Shown piece by piece: positions 20,478 to 61,287 of a stretch of DNA of 64,000 nucleotides. The number at the start of each line of letters is the position of its first letter. Within the stretch, counting starts at the first letter, position 1. The notes beneath the pieces are model-generated. The model was given only the letters and a program-made list of their open reading frames with translations, was not told the DNA's origin and searched no databases. Made by a program: the position numbers and the translations under genes. Origin of the DNA: Thermodesulfobacteriota bacterium (GTDB lineage Bacteria; Desulfobacterota_D; UBA1144; Nemesobacterales; JAJCZQ01); NCBI GenBank assembly GCA_965215275.1, contig OZ244044.1:96001-160000 (forward strand), read 5' to 3'.

Positions 20478-23087
20478 ATGGCAATTAATCAAAGATATAA
20501 AAAGAGTGGTTACAAGGTCCTGAAAATAGCAGGGTGGTTTTCTCTGGTCTGTCTTATAGCGTTGACAACTGCTTCGTACTTTGTTTATAAGCACTATTCA
20601 AGGGATCTGCCTGACTTAAAGGACGTAACCAATTACAGACCAACGCTGGTCAATGAAATATATTCCTCGGATGGTCAGCTCGTGGGCAAGTTCGGTCACA
20701 CGAAGAGAAAGTTGGTTGATATTGATCATATTCCAAGATATCTGGTCAATGCGTTCATTGCCGTTGAGGATAGAAGGTTCTTGGAACATAAGGGACTGGA
20801 CACAAGGGCGGTATTGAGGGCGATCGTTCAGAATTTCAGGCGAGGCAACATCGTGGAAGGCGGCAGCACGATAACTCAGCAGGTCGCTAAAAACCTTATA
20901 CTGACCTCTGAAAGGACCTTCACAAGGAAGATCAAAGAAGCAATACTTTCTTACAGAATTGAAAAAAACCTTTCCAAGGACGAGATCCTGTATCTCTATC
21001 TCAATCATATCTATCTTGCCGGTGGAATATATGGGGTGGAAGCGGCAAGCAACAGCTACTTTGGAAAATCAAGTAAGGATATAAACGTTTCCGAAGCCGC
21101 TTTACTTGCCGGAATACCCAGGAGACCTGAGAAATATTCACCGAGAAAAAATTTGGCGGCATCTTTGGAGCGACAGAAACTGGTCCTGAAGATCATGAAA
21201 CAGGAAGGAGTAATTAACGCCCGTCAGTACGAACAGGGTGTGAATTACCCGATCAGAATTGTTGCAAGTCCTTACAAGAGTTACCAGACGGCACCTTATT
21301 TTGTTGAATATGCAAGAAAGTACCTTGAGAATAAAGTAGGAGAAGAAAAATACACACTCGGGGGATACAAGGTAATTACCACCCTTAATGTGGATTTAAA
21401 TTTAGCTGCTGAATGGGCTGTAAAAAGAGGTCTGTATAATTACGAATCCAGGTGGGATAATAACTTTATAATAGACCACCTCGATTCAGCAGAATCCATA
21501 GAGGAGTATCTAACTGGTCAGCAGGAAGCGGATTATAAAGATGAAACGGTAGTGGACGCCGTGGTGACCAAAGTAAGCAAGTGGAATGGTCCGATCAACG
21601 TTGCAAATGTTTCATTTGCTGATTACACGGGTGAGATCAAGTACGTTGTTTACAACAGGAGAAATAACCCGTCTCCTGAAAGTATAGGATTTAATCTTTC
21701 AGACAAACACTTACCAGCAAGTTCATATAAAGGTATTTACATTATTCCGGAAAAGCTCTCAGTCGGGGATGTGATCAGCGTACAGATCAGCAGTTTTAAT
21801 AATGAAGAATATACCGTAAGCATAGAGCCCAGGTTCCAGAACGAAGCACAGGCTGCTCTCATATCGATTGATAAAAGCGGCAGCATAGTTGCAATGGTCG
21901 GAGGAGTTGATTTCAGATATTCCAAACTTAACAGAGCAACACAGGCACTAAGACAGCCGGGTTCAGCTTTCAAGCCTTTGGTCTATTCTGCCGCTCTTGA
22001 TAAAGGTTATACACAAACTTCCATGTTACTGGACATGCCCGTCACGATAGGCGAATGGGAACCGAAAAATTACGACGATGAATACAGAGGTGAACTGCTG
22101 CTGAAAGAAGCATTACTGAATTCAAGGAACCTGGCGTCTGTAAGGTTAATTATGGACATAGACCCGACTTACGCTGCAGATTACAGCAGACAGTTTAAAT
22201 TTGAATCCAGTCTGAACCCGTACCCGTCGCTGGCACTGGGTGGGTCGGAGGTAACGCTTCTGGAAATGACCCGTGCTTACTCTGTTTTTGCAAATGGAGG
22301 GCAATGGATAGAACCAAGGTTCATTTTGAGAATATATGACAGGAACAATCAGATAATAGAAAATAACACGGGTAAGTATTTCGTCGATAAGAAGGAAATA
22401 TTAAAACGAAACAGGCTAAAGCAGCGAAACAGGCTGTTAAAGGAGTTATATGAAAAAAAGGGCAAGTACCTGCCGGAGAGCCTTGTTTCGGACGAGTTGA
22501 TACAGGAGGAGGAATTTACCAGTTTGGATTATGAAAATATTGATTCAAAGAGTGGTTTTTTAGCGGCCAATGAATTTATTGAGCTATTGAGAAAAAGCAG
22601 TCTGACGTTCGACGCAGTCAATGATACTGAAAAGATAATATCAGAGGACACAGCTTATATAGTTACCAATTTGCTTCAGGCCGTTGTTAAAGAAGGAACG
22701 GCTGTCAGAGCTAACTTCTTGAATTCCAAATCGCCCATTGCGGGTAAAACTGGCACATCCAATGATTTCACGGACGCATGGTTTGTTGGTTACAGTCCGG
22801 AACTGGTAACTGGTGTTTGGGTGGGGAACGATAATCACAGTACTTTGGGAGAAGAGGAGTCCGGAGCAAGGGCTGCGTTGCCAATATGGATAAGTTATAT
22901 GAATTCTGCACTTGATAAGTACAAAGCGGAGAGTTTTAAAGTTCCCGAGGGTATAAAGTTCTTTGAAACACAGTATGGTAAGATACCTTACAGTATCGAA
23001 TCATTAATAGAGGAAACCCCGGATAAGATCAATTCCCAAATAACCGTTCCGCCGAATCTATTGCGATTTATTCCCTCGGAGTCGTAG
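20478..23087 (+). CDS. mrcA: Class A penicillin-binding protein 1A
   Basis: Transglycosylase EDRRF, GGSTITQQ, RKIKE; transpeptidase SAFK, SRN, KTG. Confidence 0.92.
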   Translation: MAINQRYKKSGYKVLKIAGWFSLVCLIALTTASYFVYKHYSRDLPDLKDVTNYRPTLVNEIYSSDGQLVGKFGHTKRKLVDIDHIPRYLVNAFIAVEDRRFLEHKGLDTRAVLRAIVQNFRRGNIVEGGSTITQQVAKNLILTSERTFTRKIKEAILSYRIEKNLSKDEILYLYLNHIYLAGGIYGVEAASNSYFGKSSKDINVSEAALLAGIPRRPEKYSPRKNLAASLERQKLVLKIMKQEGVINARQYEQGVNYPIRIVASPYKSYQTAPYFVEYARKYLENKVGEEKYTLGGYKVITTLNVDLNLAAEWAVKRGLYNYESRWDNNFIIDHLDSAESIEEYLTGQQEADYKDETVVDAVVTKVSKWNGPINVANVSFADYTGEIKYVVYNRRNNPSPESIGFNLSDKHLPASSYKGIYIIPEKLSVGDVISVQISSFNNEEYTVSIEPRFQNEAQAALISIDKSGSIVAMVGGVDFRYSKLNRATQALRQPGSAFKPLVYSAALDKGYTQTSMLLDMPVTIGEWEPKNYDDEYRGELLLKEALLNSRNLASVRLIMDIDPTYAADYSRQFKFESSLNPYPSLALGGSEVTLLEMTRAYSVFANGGQWIEPRFILRIYDRNNQIIENNTGKYFVDKKEILKRNRLKQRNRLLKELYEKKGKYLPESLVSDELIQEEEFTSLDYENIDSKSGFLAANEFIELLRKSSLTFDAVNDTEKIISEDTAYIVTNLLQAVVKEGTAVRANFLNSKSPIAGKTGTSNDFTDAWFVGYSPELVTGVWVGNDNHSTLGEEESGARAALPIWISYMNSALDKYKAESFKVPEGIKFFETQYGKIPYSIESLIEETPDKINSQITVPPNLLRFIPSES

Positions 23088-53473: not shown

Positions 53474-54037
53474 ATGGGGATAGCAGAAAAAAATAATAAG
53501 AAAAATATTATTGTGTCAATAAAGACACCTAATGATCTTGGATTGGATTCAAAAACTTTGCAGGATAAAACTAAAGAAATTAAAATACCCAGCATTTCTA
53601 ACGGTTATCATAAATTTTGTTTAATACGAGATGAAAAAATCTTGTATGAAATAAACAATGGATTTATTTCTTGGGTTCTTAAATTAATACCTTATTTTAA
53701 TAATTGTTTTTATCTCGAACATAAATTTTCTGAACATGAGATAGAAGTTGTTTTTGAAGATTCTAGAGATTTATGTTTTTATAGAAATTATTTTTCTAAA
53801 TGGATGGTTGTATATAATAATACTCATACTGGGGATATTAAAGTGTATTATAAAAATGAAAATGCGGGACTCGTAAGTATGATTACATTTCATAACATAA
53901 AAATCAAAGAAATCAGACCTGTAAATTTAAATTTGAATAATGATAATAACATAGAATTTAGCGTAATTTTTACATCTACCAAGATTGAATATGGATTAGA
54001 TTTAAGAAAAGAAAATAATAATGGAGGTAGTAAATGA
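53474..54037 (+). CDS. Hypothetical protein, T4 gp19-like tail-tube fold suspected
   Basis: IEVVFEDSRDLCFYRNYFSKW...DIKVYYKNENAGLVSMITFHNIKIKEIRPVNLNLNNDNNIEFSVIF resembles the gp19-family C-terminal pattern (by eye). Confidence 0.45.
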   Translation: MGIAEKNNKKNIIVSIKTPNDLGLDSKTLQDKTKEIKIPSISNGYHKFCLIRDEKILYEINNGFISWVLKLIPYFNNCFYLEHKFSEHEIEVVFEDSRDLCFYRNYFSKWMVVYNNTHTGDIKVYYKNENAGLVSMITFHNIKIKEIRPVNLNLNNDNNIEFSVIFTSTKIEYGLDLRKENNNGGSK

Positions 54038-54501
54038 GTTATCAAATAAGTAAAGAGCAAGTAATCAAATATATATCTGATACTTTATCAAAAGAAAATG
54101 AACTTTTAAATATAGAATATGGAGAATGTAAAACTATTTTAAATGATTTAAATCGAAAGATAAAAGAGCGTGAGGAAAGCGTTAAATATACAAGGGAACA
54201 GATTGCATCTATTGATGCATTGATAAAAGATTTAGAAAAAACATATTCTAACGGTTGGAATAGAAACTTGTTGAAGATCAAAGATGGCGATATAAATATA
54301 GAAACCAAAGAATATATTAAATGTTTATATAATAATGTTCTACCAATGAGAAAAGCAATTATATCACAAAAACTTGCAAATTTAGAAAATGATTTAAATG
54401 TACTGAACGAAGAAAGGTATTCTCTTGTAGAAAAAGTTAATAAAAAGGGATTTGAATATAAGTCTGTTAAATGGATTGATCAAGTAATTAAAAAACAATA
54501 A
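54034..54501 (+). CDS. Hypothetical coiled-coil protein
   Basis: GGAGG RBS, start overlapping the upstream stop region, heptad-rich sequence. Confidence 0.6.
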   Translation: MSYQISKEQVIKYISDTLSKENELLNIEYGECKTILNDLNRKIKEREESVKYTREQIASIDALIKDLEKTYSNGWNRNLLKIKDGDINIETKEYIKCLYNNVLPMRKAIISQKLANLENDLNVLNEERYSLVEKVNKKGFEYKSVKWIDQVIKKQ

Positions 54502-54514
54502 AAAACTATAATGA

Positions 54515-55059
54515 ATGGTAATAATCACGAAGCTGACTTTACAGAACTTCCTGTCGTATAAAGAATTAGAACTTAACTTCAAACCTGGCAGACACCTTAT
54601 TCTTGACAGTATAGACGGAAATCCTACTATATCTAACGGATCGGGTAAATCATAGATGGTTTACTCGTTTCTTTATTCGGTCAGACCAGAGCTGAAATCA
54701 TCAGTACTAACGATCAAGAAGATTGCGTAGCTACTGTTGAATTCAATGTAGATAAATCATCTTACAAGATAGAAAGATATCATAAACATAAAGAACATAA
54801 GAATGTTGTTAAGATATATAAAGATTTGTTAAGATATATAAAGATAAAGAAGATATCACTCCTTCCAAGATATTAGACAGTAAGGCATATGTTAAGTAAG
54901 ATACTTGATATATCTTATGATGTATTCGTCTCGTCTTTTGTAATCCTTCAGGGTATGCCAGCTGTCTTTGGCAATCTATCTGACACTGGAAGAAAGTCAT
55001 TACTTGAAGATGTATTAAATTTGGGGACTATATACAATGTTGCACAAAATAAAAAGCAT
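54515..55059 (+). pseudogene. SbcC/Rad50/T4 gp46-like recombination ATPase, N-terminal fragment, frameshifted
   Basis: MVIITKLTLQNFLSYKELELNF...SNGSGKS* (stop 54653-54655); next frame IDGLLVSLFG...VEFNVDKSSYKIER; then KILDISYDVFVSSFVILQG...RKSLLEDVLNL; 20-bp tandem duplication at 54806-54845. Confidence 0.75.
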
Positions 55060-55962
55060 TTATTCTGTTGAGAACGGAATGGGCATAAAGCAGCCTATAA
55101 ACACTAAAAGCGTTAACAATGCCAGCAGTTTTCTCTTAATACCGATATCCTCTTCCTCATATTCGGTGGGTGGATGACCGGTTCCGATCAGTATTAAGGC
55201 AAGCACCCAGATAAGCCATCCGAACCATCCTTCCAGGGCAAGGTAATTGCTTAACCCCTGAATGTCCATGCCCAGAGCCTGAAACAGGTTCATGAACGGT
55301 TCTGAACCCATACCGAGTATTACAAGAAGGACTATTGAAGCGTGAGAGAAGAAAGAATGGACCTTTTTACTGAACAATGAAAATATTAAATGCCCTCCAT
55401 CAAGCTGTCCTGACGGTATAAGGTTGATAGCCGTTACAAACAGACCTATCCATCCTGCAAACGCCATTGGGTGAAGCATGATGTCTTCACCTTCTTTTAT
55501 AGCTTCACTTCCCAGGGTCATATCTACAAAAAGTTCAAACAGTAAAGATGAACCCAGGCGTATGACCGACCCGTTCTCGAACTCGGTCACTGGGACGACC
55601 TGCGACATCTTAAGTCCGATAAAGAGGATCGGTAGTGTAGCGACCACTCCAAAAAGCGGTCCTGCAACGCCGATGTCGAACAGCGAGCTCTTTGATCTTA
55701 TCTGTGATTTGATCTTTATGAAAGCTCCCATCGTACCGGCTATAAAAGGTGGCGGAACAGGTATAAAGTAAGGTGGAGAAACAAGGACGTTATGCCTTCT
55801 GGCGTACATATAGTGGCCAAGTTCATGGGAACCCAGTATGAACAGGATCGAAAAAGAGAAGAATATGCCACTGGCAATGCTCCCTCCTTGCAGATATCCG
55901 GAAAGAAAAGTAGTAAATACAGTGGCGACGAAAAGCACGATATGGATCACGGTCAAGTTCAT
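55060..55962 (-). CDS. Site-2 protease (M50) family
   Basis: HELGH, AGP, NLIPSGQLDGGH. Confidence 0.92.
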   Translation of the reverse strand: MNLTVIHIVLFVATVFTTFLSGYLQGGSIASGIFFSFSILFILGSHELGHYMYARRHNVLVSPPYFIPVPPPFIAGTMGAFIKIKSQIRSKSSLFDIGVAGPLFGVVATLPILFIGLKMSQVVPVTEFENGSVIRLGSSLLFELFVDMTLGSEAIKEGEDIMLHPMAFAGWIGLFVTAINLIPSGQLDGGHLIFSLFSKKVHSFFSHASIVLLVILGMGSEPFMNLFQALGMDIQGLSNYLALEGWFGWLIWVLALILIGTGHPPTEYEEEDIGIKRKLLALLTLLVFIGCFMPIPFSTE

Positions 55963-58499: not shown

Positions 58500-59921
58500 A
58501 TGAACAATGAAGCAAAAGGCAGCAGCATTTACAGAATAGCTATAATAGGGTCTGGTCCGGCAGGGTTTTTTGCTGCAGGATATCTGTTCGATAATAAAGA
58601 CCTGAATATTGAAATTGATATGTATGACAAACTTCCAACTCCTTTTGGACTTGTCAGGTCGGGCGTGGCACCCGATCATCAGAAAGTAAAGAGCGTTACA
58701 AGGGTTTATAACAAGATAGCTGAAAATCCAAAGTTCAGATTTTATGGACTGGTCGAATTTGGGCTTCATATTACCCTTGAAGATCTGAAAAAGTTCTATC
58801 ATCAGGTAATTTTTGCCACCGGGACACAGACCGATAGAAGAATGAAGATCTCCGGCGAAGGTCTGGAAAGGAGCTATACTGCTACAGAGTTTGTTGCATG
58901 GTATAACGGACACCCTGCTTTTGTCGATTTTGATTTTGATCTGACTGTCGAAAAAGTGGCGATCGTAGGTATTGGTAACGTAGCAGTGGACGTGGCGAGA
59001 ATACTGTGCAGGTCTGCAAATGAACTTTCAAAAACGGATATTACGGACTATGCGTTCGATAAACTCATAAACAGCAATGTAAAGGAGATATATATGCTCG
59101 GGAGACGTGGACCCGCACAGGCGGCGTTTACAAACCCTGAAATAAGAGAACTTCAAAATCTTGAATCCGCGGATGTCATAACATTAAAGAAAGAAGTTGA
59201 ACTTGATGCTCTAACTACCTGTTATTTATCAAAAAACCCTGTCAGATCAACGGAAAAAAAAGTGCAGATGCTAAAAGAGTTCTCGGAAAACACCTGCGAT
59301 AAGGATAAACGTCTTATAATCAGGTTCCTTGTGTCTCCAGTGGAACTTCTGCCTGATGGAGAAGGAGGTGTTAAAGGTATTAAACTTGCGAAGAACGAAC
59401 TGTTCAGATCCGATGATGGTTCTTTAAGGGCACGTCCCACGGGTGAGCATGAGATATTAGAGGTAGGCACCGTGTTTCGCTCCATAGGGTACTACGGAAC
59501 CCCTCTTGCAGGTGTACCCTTTGATGAGTATCGTGGGATTATACCCAATAAGCAGGGCAGGGTTACCGACGAAAAAGGGAACAGCATTTTAGGACTGTAC
59601 ACGGCAGGATGGATAAAACGCGGACCCACCGGAGTTATAGGAACGAATAAAATGGATTCGTCAGAGACCGTTTCGGCGATGGTCGACGATATTCGCAGCA
59701 ATAAGACCTTTAAACCTGAATTTACCAGTTCAGAGAAAGTGGAAACTTTACTTGAAGAAAGCAAGGGAAGTGATTCGGGTTATATTGACTATGCCGACTG
59801 GCTTGAGATAGATAAGGATGAGGTCAGTAAGGGAAAAATAAAAGGGAAACCTCGGGTGAAATTTACCACTGTTGAGGATATTAGAAAGCTTTTAAATAAA
59901 AAAAGGGAATTATATAGTTAA
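58500..59921 (+). CDS. Ferredoxin/adrenodoxin-NADP+ reductase (FprA-like); stop codon now supplied by the inserted element
   Basis: IGSGPAG, PFGLVRSGVAPDH, GIGNVAVDVAR, GWIKRGPTGVIG. Confidence 0.9.
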   Translation: MNNEAKGSSIYRIAIIGSGPAGFFAAGYLFDNKDLNIEIDMYDKLPTPFGLVRSGVAPDHQKVKSVTRVYNKIAENPKFRFYGLVEFGLHITLEDLKKFYHQVIFATGTQTDRRMKISGEGLERSYTATEFVAWYNGHPAFVDFDFDLTVEKVAIVGIGNVAVDVARILCRSANELSKTDITDYAFDKLINSNVKEIYMLGRRGPAQAAFTNPEIRELQNLESADVITLKKEVELDALTTCYLSKNPVRSTEKKVQMLKEFSENTCDKDKRLIIRFLVSPVELLPDGEGGVKGIKLAKNELFRSDDGSLRARPTGEHEILEVGTVFRSIGYYGTPLAGVPFDEYRGIIPNKQGRVTDEKGNSILGLYTAGWIKRGPTGVIGTNKMDSSETVSAMVDDIRSNKTFKPEFTSSEKVETLLEESKGSDSGYIDYADWLEIDKDEVSKGKIKGKPRVKFTTVEDIRKLLNKKRELYS

Positions 59922-60060
59922 GTAGACAAACTTACCTATACTGTTCTGAGTGCAGAGTTCCTCTATCCCTGTTCTCTTTTGATCTGATACTCTTAGCACT
60001 CATCGGGAGTATTGCTACCTTATTCCCGCCCGATATGAAGTCTCCTTCATTAAGAGTATT
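59885..60060 (-). ncRNA. Putative omega-RNA overlapping the tnpB 3' end, plus flank-derived guide
   Basis: Several stems: ATGAAG-GAGA-CTTCAT, ATCGGG/CCCGAT enclosing GTA-GCAA-TAC, GAGTGC/GCACTC, TATAGGTAAGT/ACTTAACTATA; boundaries approximate. Confidence 0.6.
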
Positions 60061-61223
60061 GATATTTTTACCTGCATTTATATCCCTGTCTTCTGAATAA
60101 CCGCAATATATACAGTTAAATACTCTTTGATACAAAGGCAGTTTTGGATTTATCTTTCCACATTCAGAACAGGCTCTTGTTGTATAATGAGCTTTAACTA
60201 AAACCAGCTTGCCTCCAGCTATCTCGGCTTTGTAAGCAAGTTGATGTTTGATCTTACCCCATTGCTGTTCCGTTATGGATTTAGCAAGATGATGGTTCTT
60301 TACCATTCCTTGTATATTCAAATCCTCTAATTTTATATGATTACTCTTCTTTACGGTCTCTGTTGTTAATCTGTGTATAGCATTATTTTCACGATCGGTA
60401 GTTCGTTCCCATTCCTTCGCTAACGATAAAACTTTCTTCTTTCTGCTATCAGAACCTTTTACCGCTCTTGAAACAATTCGTTGCTTTCTTTTCAGTTCCT
60501 TCCTGTCTATCCTGATACCGGGAACTTTAGTTCCATCTGAAAAAGCTAATCTGTTTGTTATTCCAAAATCTATCCCTATGGATTTATCCAAAGGTCTCTT
60601 CTTCTCATCTGTAAACTCACACAGAAACTGGAGCTTAATTCTTAACGAACTTTGAATTACTCTTATTATTGTTTTAGGTGCTTTCAAACAAACACACTCT
60701 GGCATACTACCTTTGAAAGATAATCTGCCAAGTCCCTTTATCGTTAAATATGTTCTTCTGCCTGTCTTCTTTATGTTTTTATAATTGTTTGTTTCAAATG
60801 AACGAACTGGTCTGTTTGAACTTTTATATTTAGGTCTGCCAACCTTCCTTACCTTCTTACCTGCTTTTTTATTCCTTAAATAGCTCAAATAAGGACTATA
60901 TGCATTATCCAGTCTTTCCAGAACGCTTCTTTGAGCTACCGCATTAAACTTTTCAAATCCCTTGTCTTGCTCTCGGACCTCAGTTAGTTCGTTAAACTGT
61001 TCGTATTTAGAGATAGTTCTTCCATACCAATCCCAGGATCTTAACCTATGGTACAAGGCACTGTTATACAGATCGGTAAGCTGATTTAAGAATTCATCCA
61101 GCCTTTTATGAAAACCACTATCTGCCTTTACAGTTCGTGTAATCGTTCTAACCATGCTATAATACTACCATTTTCCTACCAATTTTACAAGTTCTTTCTT
61201 GTCAACTTAACTATATAATTCCC
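59905..61223 (-). mobile_element. Non-autonomous TIR-bounded element carrying only tnpB (IS1595-like ends)
   Basis: TIRs GGGAATTATATAGTTAAGT(A/T)GACAA at 59905-59929 and 61199-61223 (24/25 match); direct repeat TAAAAAAA at 59897-59904 and 61224-61231. Confidence 0.85.
59932..61155 (-). CDS. tnpB: RNA-guided endonuclease TnpB
   Basis: LYNSAL, RuvC-I GIDFG, RuvC-II KLEDLNI, zinc finger CSECG...CIYCG, RuvC-III DRDINAGKNI. Confidence 0.93.
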   Translation of the reverse strand: MVRTITRTVKADSGFHKRLDEFLNQLTDLYNSALYHRLRSWDWYGRTISKYEQFNELTEVREQDKGFEKFNAVAQRSVLERLDNAYSPYLSYLRNKKAGKKVRKVGRPKYKSSNRPVRSFETNNYKNIKKTGRRTYLTIKGLGRLSFKGSMPECVCLKAPKTIIRVIQSSLRIKLQFLCEFTDEKKRPLDKSIGIDFGITNRLAFSDGTKVPGIRIDRKELKRKQRIVSRAVKGSDSRKKKVLSLAKEWERTTDRENNAIHRLTTETVKKSNHIKLEDLNIQGMVKNHHLAKSITEQQWGKIKHQLAYKAEIAGGKLVLVKAHYTTRACSECGKINPKLPLYQRVFNCIYCGYSEDRDINAGKNINTLNEGDFISGGNKVAILPMSAKSIRSKENRDRGTLHSEQYR

Positions 61224-61230
61224 TAAAAAA

Positions 61231-61287
61231 ACACCAAGCTGAACTACTGTATTAACAGAGTTAATATGTAGATAAACAGCTTGGTGT
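61231..61287. terminator. Long inverted repeat between convergent genes, possible bidirectional terminator
   Basis: ACACCAAGCTG...CAGCTTGGTGT with an inner imperfect stem CTACTGTATTAAC/GTTAATATGTAG. Confidence 0.55.

Follow-up and report, generated by a model that had tools for sequence, protein, structure and literature searches.

The closest described relatives of the system reported here are TnpB nucleases associated with DDE transposases. In the available passages of Altae-Tran 2023 (PMC10691335), six such branches with inverted terminal repeats (DDE-1 to DDE-6) are distinguished, the 3′ end of tnpB lies within 250 bp of the element end, and solo tnpB genes are moved in trans. The supplement gives TA as the motif of the DDE-5 branch and places it 8 bp upstream of the transposon end. 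IS1595 is named 0 times in the main text as available and once in the supplement, in a profile list. A 2026 review (PMC13565253), as far as it was accessible, lists ISL2, IS630 and IS1031 among the DDE families with TnpB, describes the association of TnpB with DDE transposases in prokaryotes as rare, suggests inflexible target recognition as the cause, and calls for work on prokaryotic DDE-TnpB systems. A literature search with most subscription papers outside its coverage returned no paper on TnpB within IS1595 ends. DDE-associated TnpB is already described in general (Altae-Tran 2023), and IS1595 ends with a G motif are a variant; that set may already cover the clade examined here, and DDE-5 might be IS1595.

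Three further systems serve as reference. According to the accessible parts of the review (PMC13565253), the target-adjacent motif (TAM) of Fanzor elements includes the 5′ TSD, and their scaffold the 3′ TSD; Fanzors are recognized by a RuvC-II glutamate shifted beside the zinc finger and by a eukaryotic host. In the ISDra2 TnpB complex, the bases −5U to −3C take part in the pseudoknot and not in the local pairing that had been predicted for them (PMC10097598, as far as available). Finally, IS1595 elements usually give 8-bp TSDs (PMC8101967, in the part at hand).

The window analysed here, a stretch of 64,000 nucleotides from a Thermodesulfobacteriota genome, contains a tnpB-only element of 1319 bp (about 1.3 kb) with the following surroundings (window coordinates).

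58500..59921, plus strand: host NAD(P)/flavin oxidoreductase-like gene, its stop codon now inside the TIR
59897..59904, no strand: TSD copy downstream of tnpB, predicted guide start
59905..61223, minus strand: non-autonomous IS1595-type element with tnpB as sole ORF (from TIRs, TSD and near-identical genome copies)
59905..59929, no strand: TIR at the tnpB 3′ end; in the predicted RNA it forms the 3′ side of the terminal hairpin and also the pseudoknot tip
59932..61155, minus strand: tnpB, 407 aa (RuvC D196, E277, D358 and zinc-finger cysteines)
61199..61223, no strand: TIR at the tnpB 5′ end
61224..61231, no strand: TSD copy upstream of tnpB
61232..61286, minus strand: hairpin resembling a terminator, 3′ of citrate synthase (z −6.15)

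The two 25-bp TIRs are complementary at 24/25 positions and are flanked by an exact 8-bp TSD, TAAAAAAA. The element is inserted in the U tract of the hairpin 3′ of citrate synthase. In the oxidoreductase-like gene that faces it, the insertion replaced the last three residues, TPS, with RELYS. Contigs of four sequencing runs connect both flanks to the element ends, and they contain no joint that skips the element; no empty allele was thus observed, an absence that carries no weight as evidence. A promoter and terminator scan called nothing above chance, and the hairpin upstream of the element was likewise not called. An inward-pointing TTGACA in the 5′-end TIR (61200–61205, minus strand) is a possible −35 motif, to which the scan paired no −10. 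Elsewhere in the window (53474–55071), short AT-rich ORFs between DNA ligase and protease-like genes are possibly a foreign insertion.

Both the TIR type and the 8-bp TSD are those of the IS1595 family. The genome (1.99 Mb) gives 28 matches to the IS1595 transposase domain (DDE_Tnp_IS1595), and its transposase-bearing IS1595 elements have the same end type and 8-bp TSDs. Compared with the ends of 14 of these elements, the TIR of the window element is identical at 17–22 of 25 positions; no transposase with ends identical to it was found in the genome. Like the IS1595 elements described in the accessible part of PMC8101967, the window element combines an 8-bp TSD with TIRs of about 25 bp beginning with GG; unlike them, it has no transposase and tnpB is its sole gene. 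An autonomous IS1595 element can be eliminated since DDE_Tnp_IS1595 is absent within the element, the 28 matches lying elsewhere in the genome. Assignment to IS200/IS605 (IS1341 group) is ruled out by the 25-bp TIRs and the 8-bp TSD, whereas IS200/IS605 elements are described as lacking both TIRs and TSDs (PMC13565253, accessible parts); the model NF038281 scores 178 bits, below its cut-off of 425. The genome holds one weak match to a Y1 transposase, the enzyme type that acts on the hairpin ends of IS200/IS605 elements, distant from the window element. IS607, a group whose ends serve a serine recombinase and lack TIR and TSD, is excluded by the same TIR and TSD, with NF038280 at 104 bits against a cut-off of 350.

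Copies of the window element that are 99.4% and 96.6% identical occupy unrelated sites in the genome, and because of these near-identical copies we consider it likely that the element was moved in trans by the IS1595 transposases of the genome. IS1595-type ends enclose 18 full-length elements with tnpB alone, which fall into three lineages (8 in A, the lineage of the window TnpB, 7 in B and 3 in C), as well as fragments, and no transposase was found inside any delimited tnpB element. Five full-length tnpB elements (G000:C1:82022, 327507, 772121, 1094941 and 1695227) have flanks that do not form a TSD, which suggests adjacent deletions or recombination between copies.

The encoded protein has the domains and catalytic residues of a TnpB nuclease. 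RuvC residues D196, E277 and D358 are intact and conserved, the domains PF01385 and PF07282 (OrfB_IS605, zinc-finger) are matched, and the generic TnpB model NF040570 scores 190 bits, above the cut-off of 100. The predicted structure (pLDDT 88) is closest to the folds of ISFba1 and ISDra2 TnpB (TM 0.68–0.73), with ISFba1 TnpB (PDB 8iaz) retrieved by Foldseek at E 1.9e-22. Residues 380–407 are predicted to be disordered, and the part coding for them overlaps the predicted RNA. The overlap of the RNA with a disordered C-terminal tail recurs in ISDra2 (PMC10097598, as available; PDB 8h1j, 8exa). The protein is not a Fanzor: E277 stands 52 residues before C329 and not beside the zinc finger, and the host is bacterial.

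Relatives with about 40% identity occur in 22/36 genomes of one genus that belongs to the same taxonomic order, and none were found in the 4 genomes of the same family. Further relatives with the same ends come from genomes labelled Arenicellales, Paracoccaceae, Pseudomonadales, Longimicrobiales, Binatia and others. In the home genome, the lineage C proteins are about 28% identical to the window TnpB; their elements, at G000:C1:202418–203706, 714634–715929 and 1724035–1725337 (L003, L005, L017), have IS1595-type ends. Lineage B, at G000:C1:735945–737502, 1616480–1618027, 1618044–1619604 and four more positions (L001, L007, L009, L010, L016), encodes proteins of about 460–485 aa with an N-terminal insertion and has the same scaffold type as the window element; two of its copies lie just 16 bp apart.

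The first-pass annotation of this DNA had proposed an omega-RNA with the transposon TIR as its terminal hairpin and a guide that would start in the TSD; it had named neither the TIR family (IS1595) nor the earlier description of DDE-associated TnpB. The stems it had listed are all present on the minus strand: ATACTCTTA (60051–60059) with TAAGAGTAT (59987–59995), ATGAAG-GAGA-CTTCAT (60035–60050), GTA-GCAA-TAC (60009–60018), and GAGTGC/GCACTC within 59996–60002 and 59947–59953. We add a further stem, ATCGGG (60029–60034) with CCCGAT (60002–60007), which presents a loop containing GGGAAT. The resulting model has the following parts.

59905..60059, minus strand: predicted omega-RNA scaffold, about 155 nt (from stems in homologs)
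60051..60059, minus strand: 5′ strand of P0; its pairing with 59987–59995 crosses P3 (pseudoknot topology)
60035..60050, minus strand: P1 hairpin with GAGA loop; GNRA is not conserved in this loop
60002..60034, minus strand: P2 stem; its loop holds GGGAAT (60022–60027) and an optional inner hairpin (60009–60018)
59947..60002, minus strand: P3 (59996–60002 with 59947–59953), enclosing P4 (59967–59971 with 59953–59957)
59912..59941, minus strand: P5 terminal hairpin, the last tnpB codons paired with the TIR
59905..59910, minus strand: tip ATTCCC, predicted to pair with 60022–60027 as the 3′ side of the pseudoknot

Folding of the single sequence gave a weak signal (z −1.65, 14/200 shuffles as good), and an Rfam search over 3001 bases returned 0 matches at E up to 5; homologs were therefore needed. 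The terminal 45 nt fold with z −2.46; the opposite element end reaches z −2.67 but at a much weaker energy (−3.5 kcal/mol). We assembled 74 distinct tnpB 3′ ends; eight loci that lacked such ends or gave spurious pairs, together with one identical row, were removed before alignment. RNAalifold applied to a MAFFT alignment missed the 3′ strand of P0, P2 and P3 because the aligner had offset two groups, and pairs were therefore counted by anchors.

By this count, 97.4% of the 1332 cells of the 18-pair named structure are paired, versus 85.4% after shuffling and 35–50% in slid controls, and 11/18 pairs show two-sided change. The anchor-segmented stems P0, P2 and P3 beat all 1000 cross-sequence shuffles; since the 74 sequences are related, these controls overstate significance. 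Pairs 4–9 of P0 are kept in 74/74 ends and pair 1 in just 18/74. All five pairs of P1 hold in 74/74, as do five pairs of P2, with a sixth in 68/74; the pairs of P3 hold in 72–74/74. Parsimony on the protein tree indicates concerted changes, for example at P1 pair 2 with 5/5/5 steps (5′ side, 3′ side, joint). The main stems thus stay paired with compensatory changes across homologous ends. The GNRA caps listed by the annotation are present in the window element and are not conserved in the homologs; the inner GUA-GCAA-UAC hairpin is absent from many relatives. A structured RNA overlapping both the tnpB 3′ end and the element end is indicated, by covariation only.

How the TIR enters this predicted structure was the central claim of the annotation, and its two component pairings can be formed. 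The sequence TATAGGTAAGT (Tyr, Arg, stop and 2 nt) faces the TIR sequence ACTTAACTATA with 10/11 pairs, and the motifs for pairing of the terminal ATTCCC (59905–59910) with the internal GGGAAT (60022–60027) are both present. In the 74 ends, the four outer pairs of P5 hold in 69–74, two of them with two-sided changes; farther in, pairing is frequently lost (pair 5 holds in 56/74, pair 6 in 52/74). A TIR-arm stem of at least 4 bp is found at 63/65 tnpB 3′ ends, compared with 12/53 5′ ends and 11/25 TnpB-free ends, with mean terminal-stem energies of −7.6, −2.8 and −2.8 kcal/mol, respectively. The left TIR, the right TIR and the inner strand of the hairpin vary jointly (n = 57: ATAT/ATAT/GTAT 18, ATGT/ATGT/GTGT 17, ATAG/ATAG/GTAG 4, ATCC/ATCC/GTCC 1). 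Because the inner strand adjoins the TIR, an exchange of ends moves both as a block, and the independent compensations may number about 3.

The pseudoknot between loop and tip is nearly invariant: four pairs hold in 72–74/74 ends, and pair 5 is broken in 17/74. For this reason its pairing (0.872) hardly exceeds that of shuffled combinations (mean 0.856, maximum 0.869). In the second Gly codon, the synonymous third position is nonetheless G in 71/74. More informative are loci outside this set, in which GGGAA/UUCCC is rewritten on both sides (L298, 6 bp; L300, 5 bp; L288, 7 bp; L247, 5 bp). L121 and L007 show a two-sided rewriting as well. L298 and L300 have a different TIR start, GGCTC, with the RNA loop rewritten to match the tip, and are the best natural test pair for the pseudoknot. 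Nine distinct loop/tip combinations from the outside set are 84% paired versus 69% when shuffled, and 0.5% of the shuffles are as high. L237 and L295 fail, with just 3 pairs each; the parsing of this set missed P2 in 10/36 loci and chose a wrong stem in L144. In lineage C, the hairpin loop is GGGAA or a one-base variant in 18/22 loci, and in the other four the script chose an upstream match. The tip also has an alternative partner, a GAA immediately before P5. These observations agree with the proposed co-evolution of scaffold and TIR: the inner hairpin strand follows the TIR variant, the hairpin is characteristic of tnpB 3′ ends, and the loop changes with the tip.

The arrangement resembles that of ISDra2, in which, according to the available passages of PMC10097598, the last scaffold bases likewise form a pseudoknot and the terminal stem is made from the element end. 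On its reverse strand the IS1595 end finishes in UUCCC, which places U at −5 and C at −3, just where ISDra2 forms its pseudoknot; capture of such an end was therefore likely easy. The crossing of P0 and P3 has a strand order that differs from that of ISDra2. RNA structure or covariation for IS1595-type ends was not found in the accessible passages of PMC10691335 on DDE-5.

The predicted guide and its target-adjacent motif lie immediately outside the element.

59885..59904, minus strand: predicted guide, about 16–20 nt
61232..61233, minus strand: candidate TAM, TG, in which G is conserved; it may reach into TSD base 1

In 33/34 distinct A-lineage insertions (those with at most one TSD mismatch, three same-site loci left out), the TSD is immediately preceded by G, with the dinucleotides TG in 21, GG in 8, AG in 2, CG in 2 and GT in 1. 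The mirror position is G in 9/34, and the ends of 11 TnpB-free elements have G at 0/22. Counted separately, A-lineage copies whose two TSDs differ at two or more bases have G in 12/17. As a further control, transposase elements of five relatives were considered, of which 1/22 loci had a TIR and TSD pair within the retrieved DNA. An outside set was drawn from 86 of 160 listed loci (9/80 metagenome, 77/80 genome; three duplicates out), of which 48 had a TIR-TSD pair, 47 of them distinct. A TIR rule, introduced once the list had been seen, removed eleven as chance pairs, among them L250, which looks genuine. Among the remaining 36 loci the upstream base is G in 28, A in 7 (four of them from Arenicellales) and T in 1, and the mirror base is G in 7/36; with all 47, G is upstream in 30 and at the mirror position in 10. 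We propose a TAM of about one base, the G (mostly as TG or GG) directly upstream of the TSD, as a candidate based on sequence comparison.

The longer motif CTTGGTG, which the annotation had offered as a TAM region, is not borne out: positions −3 to −5 are mixed, and CTTGGTG is an arm of the terminator-like hairpin. The U-rich guide, whose seven U's might shorten the transcript, has the same origin, since the element sits in the U tract after this hairpin. The claim that the guide begins in the TSD gains support from the conserved base just outside the upstream TSD, with the reservation that the start may be base 2. The first TSD base is fixed by lineage (9 steps versus 26.1 when shuffled, five same-site loci left out), and the guide may therefore start at base 1 or base 2. 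We lean slightly toward a start at base 1 with a first-base preference; a start at base 2, in which base 1 would be the last base of a TG+T motif, has somewhat less than an even chance. No lineage signal was found at TSD bases 2–8 (base 8: 32 steps versus 31.2 when shuffled), on which ground guide-directed site choice was rejected.

Other lineages differ at the upstream position. Six correctly delimited B-lineage copies of the genome have no G upstream of the TSD and carry A instead, and the C lineage has TA upstream with A as first TSD base in 3/3. In C-like elements of the related genus, the first TSD base is A in 12/12, with GA, GG, TG, AG or TA upstream. Set beside DDE-5 as the available part of PMC10691335 describes it, the window element has the same geometry, with 8 bp between the upstream motif and the element end; the TA motif itself is absent from the window lineage (G, as TG or GG) and present solely in the genome's C lineage (3/3). 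The ISDra2 TAM is the 5-nt TTGAT, whereas the present element has DDE-type ends, a candidate motif of about 1–3 nt and a target that is partly duplicated. The likeness to Fanzor elements, as given in the accessible parts of PMC13565253, is that of a TnpB-family nuclease in TIR elements with TSDs, and a TSD within the TAM would correspond to the base-2 register. Unlike in Fanzor, the system is bacterial, has the canonical RuvC-II glutamate and retains the pseudoknot, and at least 7 of the 8 TSD bases are free and therefore part of the guide.

Could the nesting of scaffold and TIR be fortuitous, an IS605-type tnpB riding as IS1595 cargo, with the hairpin and GGGAAT/ATTCCC either accidental or serving a DNA function of the TIR? 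IS1595-type ends in this genome do hold several other kinds of cargo, the single-sequence fold is not significant, and a 4–5 bp stem also occurs at 11/25 TnpB-free ends. Against this stand the end-specificity of the hairpin and its adherence to the TIR variants, the rewriting of the loop where the tip differs, the near-fixed synonymous G of the second Gly codon and the upstream G, which is found only with these TnpB elements. The homologs thus argue against chance nesting, as the annotation had maintained, despite the weak fold of the window sequence, and we regard a passenger tnpB as extremely unlikely.

Two further alternatives concern the upstream G. An asymmetric target preference of the transposase might give both the G and the fixed first TSD base, the true TAM being different or absent. 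In the related genus, the first base does vary with the TIR (A in 15/17 TCTAG ends, T in 16/23 TCAAC ends), no IS1595 transposase of the genome is matched to the element by identical ends, and the TnpB-free control is small, at 11 elements. That same control has G at 0/22 ends, however, TSD base 8 carries no lineage signal, and within a single genome TnpB lineages that share the TIR type have different bases upstream of the TSD (G, A, TA); we therefore consider the explanation unlikely. We think it very unlikely that the TnpB-RNA complex helps to choose the insertion site, instead of or besides later rescue. The near-completeness of G even in 99%-identical copies, set against the 0/22 baseline, would fit such steering, since post-insertion selection would need fast removal of most new insertions. 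Against it, the lack of lineage signal at TSD bases 2–8 means that sites are not copied from the donor guide, and the delimited elements contain no internal transposase. In CAST effectors the RuvC residues are not intact, unlike those of the present TnpB.

We therefore favor, with a probability of about 0.8, a tnpB-only element with IS1595 ends whose predicted scaffold runs from the tnpB end to the TIR tip, whose guide would extend into the TSD and whose nuclease would cut empty sites beside a G. An IS1595 transposase would move the element in trans, and a transcript through tnpB and the TIR would be processed to an omega-RNA that reads on into the duplicated bases. The TnpB-RNA complex would then cut empty alleles of the insertion site that carry the adjacent G, and the filled copy would serve as repair template and restore the element, so that G-adjacent insertions would persist. 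Self-cutting would be avoided at both filled junctions. The upstream junction should be spared because it offers the motif and just 8 matching bases, ISDra2 TnpB needing about 12; the downstream junction, because its full match stands behind CC and not G. As the annotation had predicted, the filled allele matches the guide at the TSD only, with exactly 8 contiguous bases at the left junction (11/20 in total). The match is 8 bases in 24/28 exact-TSD elements and 9–11 in the other four. When nine A-lineage guides were compared with the genome, (T/G)G followed by a 12-base match occurred 0 times and G followed by a 12-base match once, for the guide of the window element.

On the favored reading, these elements present a directly testable solution to inflexible target recognition, with a motif reduced to about one base that lies outside the TSD, the TSD as guide start and a scaffold rebuilt on a borrowed end, and tnpB elements with IS1595 ends would be bacterial counterparts of Fanzor elements. 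Should the motif prove to be G or TG/GG, a nuclease of 407 aa (about 380 aa without the tail) would target far more widely than ISDra2 TnpB. Lineages A and B offer a natural comparison from which to map the residues that recognize the motif. A bolder version holds that this TnpB clade, widespread in bacteria, was re-housed in IS1595 ends more than once, with rewiring of pseudoknot and hairpin to each new end, that the motif is a single G, and that the nearly complete G bias of even very young insertions comes from the complex helping to steer insertion, as a minimal forerunner of nuclease-steered transposition; we see it as a long shot.

Several other loci came to light in the course of this analysis. 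At L033, the DNA 3′ of a tnpB-like gene holds short direct repeats, each about 36 nt long, which resemble a small CRISPR-type array. IS1595-end elements of about 420–440 bp (G000:C1:17470–17889, 21513–21955, 1898058–1898472 and 1900512–1900957) are paired around cargo; the region G000:C1:17470–21955 has one TSD and encloses, as judged by eye, an ABC-type ATPase-like and two TPR-like ORFs. In transposase-bearing IS1595 elements at G000:C1:675417–678070, 1002026–1005187, 1304051–1307389, 1516018–1519071 and 1812584–1815955, the passengers resemble by eye DNA methyltransferases and restriction enzymes. Finally, G000:C1:1028600–1033127 contains a single ORF of 1183 aa between IS1595-type ends, without a transposase.
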